Part shown: in pieces, positions 1-1,061 of the stretch
How the letters are laid out: each line of letters starts with the position of its first letter
Numbering within the stretch: the stretch's first letter is position 1
Assembly: GCF_003334335.1 (NCBI RefSeq)
Contig: NZ_QOWQ01000125.1
Length of the DNA stretch: 1,061 nucleotides
Source: Escherichia coli
Lineage (GTDB): Bacteria; Pseudomonadota; Gammaproteobacteria; Enterobacterales; Enterobacteriaceae
Direction: 5' to 3' (one strand)
Position numbers and translations under genes: made by a program
The notes under the pieces: model-generated
What the model was told of the DNA's origin: nothing
Seen by the model: the letters and a program-made list of their open reading frames with translations, nothing else
Database searches by the model: none

Positions 1-1031
1 CTCTGGTACCACTGCCATTTTTTATCCGCCTCATCAAATGCCTTCTGCGCACTGGCGAGCATATCCGCTGAGGATTCCGGACGACCGATATCCAGAATGG
101 CATCCCACATCGATTTGAACGCCTTCCCTGTTTTATCCGCCCAGGTTTCCAGCGTCCCCATGTTCTCTTTCAGGCGGCGGGTCTGCTCATCAAAGCCTTT
201 CGTGGCAGCATCGTTCGCCGCCTGTAAGGCACCGGCCTCGTCTCCGGAACGCTGCAGCTGTGCAACATACGCAATCTGCTCTGCCGTCACGTTACGGAAC
301 TGGCGCGCCATCGCCATCAGTCCCGACGTCGGGTCGGTGGTCAGTTTTCCGAAAGCCTCTGCAACCTTGTCCACTTCAACACCGGAGGCAGACGCAAAAC
401 GCGCGACACTCTGGTTAATGGCATCAAACTGTTCACCACCACGCACACCGGCATTCACCAGGGCTGCCAGTGACTCTCTCGCCTGGTTAAACGTCAGCCC
501 TGCTGCCTGCCCGGCTCTTGAGAGAGTCAGCATACGATCGGCAGTCAGTCCGGACTGATTACCGGAAAGAACCAGGGTTTTATTAAACGCTGAAAGCGTG
601 GAATCTCCCTGGTACCAGGCGTACACCAGCGCACCTGTCGCCACCGCCAGCGAGGTGACCCCGACCATCGGCAGGGTGATCGCACCGGCAAGCCCCCTGA
701 ACATGGGGATCATCCCGCCGAAGGAGTCCTTCACCTGACCGCCCTGTTGCAGCAGGATCAGCCAGGGATTCTGACCACCTGCAAGCTGCGTGGCGATATC
801 CGTAAACTGTGCGGGCAGGGTTCGCATGGCCGCTTTATACTGCCCGACGGAAATCCCGGCTTTTTGTGCAGCCAGCGCCTGGCGGCTCAGGCCCTGTTCA
901 ACAGCACTGGCGGTTTTTCTGGCGTCGGTATCCAGACCTGAAAAATGACGCCTTACCCGGCTCATCTGCTCATCGAAACGGACAGCATCCAGACTCAGGT
1001 CAATAACAAGATCACCAACCGGCTGGGACAT
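1..1031 (-). CDS. H: Phage tail tape measure protein, lambda gpH-like; 5' partial gene (about 343 N-terminal codons), continues beyond window position 1
   Basis: Seen in sequence: ATG at 1031..1029 (minus strand) directly follows an in-frame TGA (1037..1035), so the start is unambiguous. By manual translation the frame stays open for about 343 codons to the window edge. Product begins MSQPVGDLVIDLSLDAVRFDEQMSRVRRHFSG...NPWLILLQQGGQVKDSFGGMIPMFRGLAGAITLPMVG...AWYQGDSTLSAFNKTLVLSGNQSGLTADRMLTLSRAGQAAGLTFNQ...GVEVDKVAEAFGKLTTDPTSGL...AEQIAYVAQLQRSGDEAGALQAAN...TRRLKENMGTLETWADKTGKAFKSMWDAILDIGRP... Established knowledge (recalled from memory, not searched): lambda gpH starts MAEPVGDLVVDLSLDAARFDEQMARVRRHFSG... 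and shares the long identical blocks shown. A GGAGGTG ribosome-binding site sits 6 nt upstream. Confidence 0.9.
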   Translation of the reverse strand, partial: MSQPVGDLVIDLSLDAVRFDEQMSRVRRHFSGLDTDARKTASAVEQGLSRQALAAQKAGISVGQYKAAMRTLPAQFTDIATQLAGGQNPWLILLQQGGQVKDSFGGMIPMFRGLAGAITLPMVGVTSLAVATGALVYAWYQGDSTLSAFNKTLVLSGNQSGLTADRMLTLSRAGQAAGLTFNQARESLAALVNAGVRGGEQFDAINQSVARFASASGVEVDKVAEAFGKLTTDPTSGLMAMARQFRNVTAEQIAYVAQLQRSGDEAGALQAANDAATKGFDEQTRRLKENMGTLETWADKTGKAFKSMWDAILDIGRPESSADMLASAQKAFDEADKKWQWYQ

Positions 1032-1034
1032 ATC

Positions 1035-1061
1035 TCACACCTCCCGGAATCCCCGCTGAAG
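1035..1061 (-). CDS. 3' end of upstream ORF (8 codons plus stop visible: ...LQRGFREV*); by synteny the T segment of the lambda-like G-T tail assembly chaperone
   Basis: Seen in sequence: on the minus strand the frame ending at TGA (1037..1035) is open back to the window edge at 1061. Inference: in lambda the gene order is V-G-T-H, so the ORF ending just before H would be T. Only 27 nt are visible, so the identity rests on position alone, not on recognisable sequence. Confidence 0.45.
   Translation of the reverse strand, partial: LQRGFREV
1038..1044 (-). promoter_or_regulatory. Shine-Dalgarno / ribosome-binding site for the tape measure gene
   Basis: Seen in sequence: minus-strand GGAGGTG (reverse complement of plus-strand CACCTCC at 1038..1044), 6 nt upstream of the ATG at 1031..1029. 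It lies inside the last codons of the upstream ORF, an arrangement typical of translationally coupled phage late genes. Confidence 0.7.

Follow-up and report, generated by a model that had tools for sequence, protein, structure and literature searches.

The DNA stretch analyzed here (referred to as the window) comprises 1,061 nucleotides (nt) of contig NZ_QOWQ01000125.1 from the Escherichia coli assembly GCF_003334335.1. Its minus strand contains a reading frame that starts with ATG at 1031..1029, runs through 343 codons without a stop to position 1, and continues past this base, while the start of the frame is overlapped by the end of an upstream gene (Table 1). Almost certainly, the window comes from a lambda-like siphovirus or prophage of E. 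coli or one of its close relatives, in whose late (tail) operon it covers the last 15 codons and the stop codon of the tail assembly chaperone gene T, followed by codons 1–343 of H, the gene for the tail length tape measure protein, which has about 857 codons in total.

The long frame was assigned to H by profile searches and comparison with phage lambda. Its 343-residue product matched two PHROG families annotated as "tail length tape measure protein," PHROG 4498 (E value of 3.6e-222) and PHROG 24 (2.1e-155), as well as the Pfam domain TMP_2 (PF06791; E value of 4.9e-70), which was found at residues 54–256 and aligned over model positions 2–207 of 208. The sequence of lambda gpH (chain 8iyk_H) was collinear with the product over residues 1–340 of both proteins (phmmer, E value of 4.6e-181). 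The amino acid identity was 83.5% to H of lambda (tblastn) and 99.7% to H of phage PhiR12_1. The guanine plus cytosine (GC) content of the window was 53%–64%, without a compositional break. The longest alternative frame was a plus-strand open reading frame (ORF) of 153 amino acids (aa) at 97–558, and nothing elsewhere in the window was comparable to the H frame. By these matches, the visible part of H encodes the N-terminal third of an ordinary lambda-type tape measure protein, an already known, textbook gene.

Several points limit this reading. Among 5,426 complete E. coli genomes, the best match to the window had 98.6% identity and an identical copy was not found, so the genomic context had to be deduced from relatives. 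The NCBIfam search with the 343-aa fragment of H yielded no match, although this result was taken as uninformative on family membership. The visible part of H is the first 40% only, and the intactness of the gene is not readable from the window. In the structure of the lambda tail, gpH was built for residues 818–849 only (PMC10721106), so there is no experimental atomic model of the third encoded in the window. Finally, the functional roles proposed for H would be carried over from lambda at 83% identity. The reading was not contradicted by any test.

Table 1. Coordinates of the features in the window
Feature	Position	Strand	Basis or remark
H, tail length tape measure gene, 5' part (codons 1–343)	1..1031	-	Open frame, profile and lambda gpH matches
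TMP_2 domain region (H residues 54–256)	264..872	-	PF06791 match
T, tail assembly chaperone gene, 3' end: 15 sense codons (SAGIPGGVRYVPAGW) from base 1059 and stop codon TGA at 1014..1012	1012..1061	-	-1 frame relative to H
Shine-Dalgarno core GGAGG, candidate for H	1040..1044	-	Seen in sequence; 8 nt upstream of ATG, within the T coding sequence
Most conserved motif of the family (H residues 72–107, LPAQFTDIATQLAGGQNPWLILLQQGGQVKDSFGG)	711..818	-	Common to tape measure proteins of Klebsiella, Serratia, and T1-like phages
Hydrophobic segment (H residues 116–140), candidate membrane-spanning helix	612..686	-	Hydropathy
Antisense ORF of 153 aa, rejected as a gene (chance ORF)	97..558	+	Not conserved, no family match, marginal length

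Boundary of the T and H genes

Translation of T in its frame ends with …GIPGGVRYVPAGW directly before the TGA codon, which results in a 20-nt overlap with the start of H. The frame in phase with H (LQRGFREV followed by TGA at 1037..1035) was also considered as a candidate for T but was rejected, as its open stretch in relatives spans no more than 8 codons. PGAP places T at 21012..21425 in L001 (E. coli 07-4299), the closest relative with an annotation; position 21012 corresponds to position 1012 of the window, and the 20-nt T/H overlap is likewise present in the annotations of PhiR12_1 and PhiR12_2_star. The C-terminus of T in lambda (gpT of the G-T chaperone, NP_040594.1), …GIAGGVRYG, is homologous to the end of T in the window; GI(A/P)GGVRY is common to both, and both genes end inside the start of H. 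In lambda, however, the overlap is 8 nt, since H codons 2 and 3, which are TCC CAG (SQ) in the window and GCT GAA (AE) in lambda, differ in such a way that the T stop codon of lambda is lost. The window T, of which 15 codons are visible, is 4 residues longer than that of lambda (…VRYVPAGW versus …VRYG).

The GGAGG sequence located upstream of H could act as its ribosome binding site. The tail assembly chaperones of lambda are G and G-T. The slippery heptamer GGGAAAG was found in the relative L012 at 1056–1062, just 5' of the G stop codon at the G/T junction, which lies upstream of the window; its presence fits G-T frameshift expression in the clade of the window. By homology with lambda, T would be made only as a G-T fusion via a -1 frameshift at GGGAAAG.

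A preliminary description of the window had presented it as one minus-strand frame plus 30 nt of an upstream neighbor. The frame 1031..1 is indeed open, and positions 1032–1061 belong to T, but the frame and the end of T, which runs to 1012, had been missed. The lack of intergenic space and strand switches stated there was confirmed, with T overlapping H by 20 nt on the same strand. A product of an alternative frame within 1..1031, regarded there as evidence against the description, exists in a trivial sense, because the last six sense codons and the stop codon of T lie at 1012–1031, while no other conserved ORF was found. In annotations, T should be ended at 1012 with a 20-nt overlap and not at the TGA in phase with H.

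Relatives and genomic context

Of the 5,426 complete E. coli genomes, 3,715 contained sequences similar to the window; the median was two copies per genome and the maximum eight, and 7,630 of the 7,662 places were chromosomal. A prophage origin is not readable from the window itself, yet it is plausible given the mostly chromosomal matches. In every annotated relative among the matches listed, the same two features lay under the match, the tape measure protein and the tail assembly protein T. At the DNA level, identity to the window was 97.5% for the temperate phages of the PhiR12 series and 95.9% for many of the Stx2a-converting phages. Over its entire length, the window is 95.1%–98.6% identical in DNA and 97%–99.7% identical in protein sequence to the tape measure genes of two phage groups, the PhiR12/PhiR5 temperate phages and the Stx2a-converting phages (proteins, e.g., XSB41634.1 of PhiR12_1 and WP_106912548.1 in E. 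coli 07-4299), which share its 20-nt T/H overlap. They differ from the window by 15–52 substitutions, which are mostly synonymous and located in two patches, 120–231 and 336–387. In the comparison with the nearest relatives, the region 418–1061 showed no differences from PhiR12_1 and two from L012, while the differences in the two patches were almost all synonymous. Such clustering suggests that short tracts were exchanged by gene conversion between lambdoid prophages residing in the same host.

L001 contains a complete lambda-like late operon within an Stx2a prophage located next to dusA. The gene order is terminase, portal, capsid, U, V-like, G, T, H, M, L, K-like, I, and J, and its H gene is 2,574 nt long. 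In lambda, too, H comes directly after the frameshifted chaperone pair G/G-T and precedes M, L, K, I, and J; the genes downstream of H lie beyond the window. Another peculiarity of L001 was noted between the tail genes I and J, where about 860 nt (15239–16101) contain no annotated feature and no ORF of at least 80 aa. A 911-nt query covering this region had no single match among phage records spanning more than about 43% of its length. This stretch may represent an insertion or decayed sequence within the tail operon of the closest relative.

Selection on the H reading frame

The IMG/VR scan yielded only very close relatives (98%–100% protein identity), which were useful for polymorphism counts but not for deep comparison. 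Variable sites were counted in 59 distinct close relatives, and the ratios of nonsynonymous to synonymous substitution rates (dN/dS) were calculated by the Nei-Gojobori method. Third codon positions of H accounted for 120 of the 169 variable sites within the gene. Between the window and L012, 28 of the 30 differences were synonymous, and the other two fell in one replaced codon (Ala275 to Ile), in which all three bases are changed and one of the steps is synonymous. The dN/dS of H was 0.03–0.15 relative to PhiR12_1, Stx2a phages, ev243, PhiR68_2, lambda, and Phi06_2987; the mosaic 1720a-02, with a value of 0.38, was the only outlier among the comparators. Since the differences are mostly at third codon positions and dN/dS is low, H is the frame under selection, and purifying selection acts on this frame only.

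Conserved motif and probable mosaic joint

The codon alignment revealed an island of about 100 nt, from ~765 to 664, in which the window-type and lambda-type sequences are almost identical, although the H genes otherwise differ by 18%. Accordingly, the synonymous divergence (dS) over H codons 101–140 was 0.10 relative to lambda and 0.03 relative to ev243, compared with 0.4–1.1 in most other 40-codon windows. The 5' part of the island encodes the motif LPAQFTD…QQGGQVKDSFGG, the most conserved stretch of the family. Directly after QQGGQVKDSFGG, at 711–715, the DNA alignments to the tape measure genes of Stx1a-converting, Stx2d-converting, and Klebsiella phages start or stop. Switches of sequence type were found in this part of the gene in individual phages. 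In 1720a-02, lambda type and window type are exchanged at about codon 84, with the first residues being unlike both, while Stx1_1649 and Stx2d_112808 are window-like through the motif and diverged after residue ~106.

Taken together, the island at ~664–765 and the break at 711–715 look like an ordinary lambdoid intragenic mosaic joint, for which one past gene conversion would suffice. At such a joint, homologous exchange would take place because strong conservation of the encoded peptide maintains DNA similarity.

Searches for additional genes and elements

A permissive Rfam search (E value of up to 1) gave two sub-threshold chance matches in the window, the better of them scoring 22.5 bits (gathering score, 60). 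ARAGORN predicted no tRNA or tmRNA genes, TRF found no tandem arrays, and PADLOC found no matches to defense families in the window. The only repeats in the window were two-copy and short (13–20 nt). Searches of the window revealed no promoter-like sites, one terminator-like site with 1.0 expected, and no Chi site. RNA folding of regions 640–790 and 960–1061 showed no excess of structure over shuffled sequences (z of -0.8 and +0.9, respectively).

Two further open stretches were rejected as candidate genes. The antisense stretch at 119–418 (99 codons) is interrupted by eight stops in Phi06_2987, and its length was not exceptional (P = 0.07). At 119–121 of the plus strand, the window, E. coli 07-4299, and 1720a-02 have ACG, while in lambda, PhiR12_1, Stx2a phages, and others this position is occupied by the ATG that opens the 99-codon ORF; loss of the ATG corresponds to an H-synonymous change of GCA to GCG at H codon 304. 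The sense-strand stretch at 585–834 (83 codons) in the -1 frame has no usable start codon (length P = 0.31).

Besides H and the end of T, the window contains no embedded gene, RNA, or accessory module. The preliminary description had likewise seen neither a novel nor an accessory system but a single structural gene, and the family searches, substitution patterns, alternative-frame analysis, and PADLOC scan agree with it. Its statement that repeat arrays and RNA-like structures are missing stands in view of the TRF, ARAGORN, Rfam, and folding results. It had also placed any cargo outside the window; this is the case in the closest annotated relative, where all accessory genes, namely, those for Stx2a, Hok/Gef (between J and the tail fiber gene), IraM, and a DinI-like protein, lie outside the region equivalent to the window. 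This is a clean negative, and the window can be left out of searches for accessory or defense cargo; otherwise, it matters little.

Alternative explanations

The window could be a remnant of a defective prophage in which H is truncated or inactivated beyond the visible part and is not a working tail gene. Many lambdoid prophages are defective, and the occurrence of up to eight copies of the region per E. coli genome (median of two), together with the fact that only 40% of H is seen, leaves room for such a scenario. However, all 343 codons are intact, the start codon, ribosome binding site, and overlap with T are preserved, and, in comparison with the PhiR12 series of functional, plaque-forming phages, nearly all substitutions are synonymous, with no sign of relaxed constraint. 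A remnant is therefore unlikely, and a working tape measure gene is the preferred reading. Far less probable, to the point of being hardly credible, is that the plus-strand ORF 97–558, which starts with ATG, is a genuine gene located antisense within H and possibly confined to this clade. The open stretch of 184 codons in its frame is longer than most of the synonymous-shuffle controls (P = 0.024 for that frame), but the P value rises to 0.062 once the five alternative frames are counted. The ORF is intact in 57 of the 59 distinct close relatives with few (2–7) amino acid changes; however, third codon positions in this antisense frame and in H fall on the same bases, which are multiples of 3 (such as position 99). 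It stays open in relatives with ~95%–99% identity because H-synonymous changes are mostly silent in a wobble-matched antisense frame. In lambda, ev243, PhiR68_2, and Phi06_2987, the start codon is absent and one to four internal stops are present: the first three have ACC at the start and stops at 259 (plus 301 or 430), and Phi06_2987 has four stops. Even among the close relatives, the ORF is interrupted by a stop at codon 54 in L041 and has lost its start codon in L077. The predicted product, whose high content of Ala, Ser, Pro, and Arg is what reading a GC-rich gene backwards would give, had no match in PHROG, NCBIfam, or PADLOC, and no promoter-like site that could serve the ORF was found on either strand of the window. 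Thus, having been checked in 59 close and five diverged relatives and found broken in lambda, ev243, PhiR68_2, Phi06_2987, and L041, the ORF was rejected as a gene.

For the identity island, the mosaic joint was weighed against the possibility that the region ~664–765 (H codons ~90–123) functions as a nucleic acid element, for example, by forming an RNA structure, by pausing translation, or as a dedicated recombination "linker." The drop of dS over codons 101–140, the near identity of the window and lambda types there, and the alignment breaks at 711–715 with other tape measure genes speak for such an element, as does the codon identity at sites with the same residue in the comparison with Klebsiella phages, which was 14–16 of 19 in residues 84–107 and 24–25 of 55–58 elsewhere. 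The counts are small, however, and the use of preferred codons for conserved residues is a general, well-known effect. As effectively only two lineages have the exact island, namely, the lambda type and that of the window, a single gene-conversion event would account for it, and real mosaic switches occur in this region in 1720a-02, Stx1_1649, and Stx2d_112808. RNA structure in the island was no better than in shuffled sequences (z of -0.8), no Rfam family was matched, and no conserved alternative-frame ORF was found within it. Overall, a nucleic acid element is not required by any of the observations and is very improbable. It would be a shade less probable still that the island and the break at 711–715 constitute a selected intragenic exchange point, with the island maintained at the DNA level for swaps of the N-terminal module. 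If this were true, lambdoid and even Klebsiella or T1-like phages could exchange the N-terminal module of 106 residues independently of the remainder of H, in which the hydrophobic stretch is located along with the region tied to dependence on the inner-membrane permease ManYZ. An ordinary mosaic joint remains the preferred explanation.

Similarity to lambda gpH and predicted function

The experimentally characterized member of the family, lambda gpH (NP_040595.1; PDB entries 8IYK, 8IYL, and 8K35), is 83% identical to the window-encoded protein and collinear with it over residues 1–340. The TMP_2 domain, the QQGGQVKDSFGG motif, the hydrophobic stretch 116–140, and Ala304 are common to both proteins. 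In lambda, as in the window, H directly follows T, and T is in the same -1 relative frame. The two proteins differ in residues 2 and 3 (AE in lambda and SQ in the window) and diverge in residues ~316–343.

The maximum of the Kyte-Doolittle profile of H (19-residue window) was 1.83, centered on residue 127. In lambda gpH, residues 116–140 have been named as a possible transmembrane stretch, and residues 1–319 ("segment 1") have been modeled as a hexameric tube (PMC12617516). During injection, lambda H is found near ManYZ, the mannose permease of the inner membrane, and near the SNIPE nuclease, and the substitution A304V in H relieves the dependence on this permease (bioRxiv 10.1101/2025.11.03.685801). 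According to the same study, residues 300–400 of H vary in a ManYZ-independent relative, and ManYZ-dependent entry is linked to sensitivity to the membrane nuclease SNIPE (bioRxiv 10.1101/2025.11.03.685801). Ala304 is kept in the window H (codon at 120–122), and its residues 316–343 (window positions 3–83), which diverge from lambda, fall inside the 300–400 region tied to ManYZ dependence.

By homology with lambda, the tube protein V would polymerize around the H oligomer, and the length of this oligomer would set that of the tail. After receptor binding, H processed at its C-terminus (H*) would be ejected and would form at least part of the trans-envelope (periplasmic) channel for DNA. The part encoded in the window would correspond to segment 1 of lambda gpH, including the stretch 116–140 and Ala304. 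It is this N-terminal third of H that is now implicated both in channel formation and in ManYZ-dependent DNA entry, and natural variants such as that of the window, in which Ala304 is kept while residues 316–343 have diverged from lambda, could be useful as comparison material.

An additional record retrieved in these comparisons was MW057783.1, named "Campylobacter phage CJLB-4" (48,361 bp). Its span and identity to the window are the same as those of phage lambda, and its annotation of H and T is lambda-style. This record probably represents lambda DNA rather than a Campylobacter phage.

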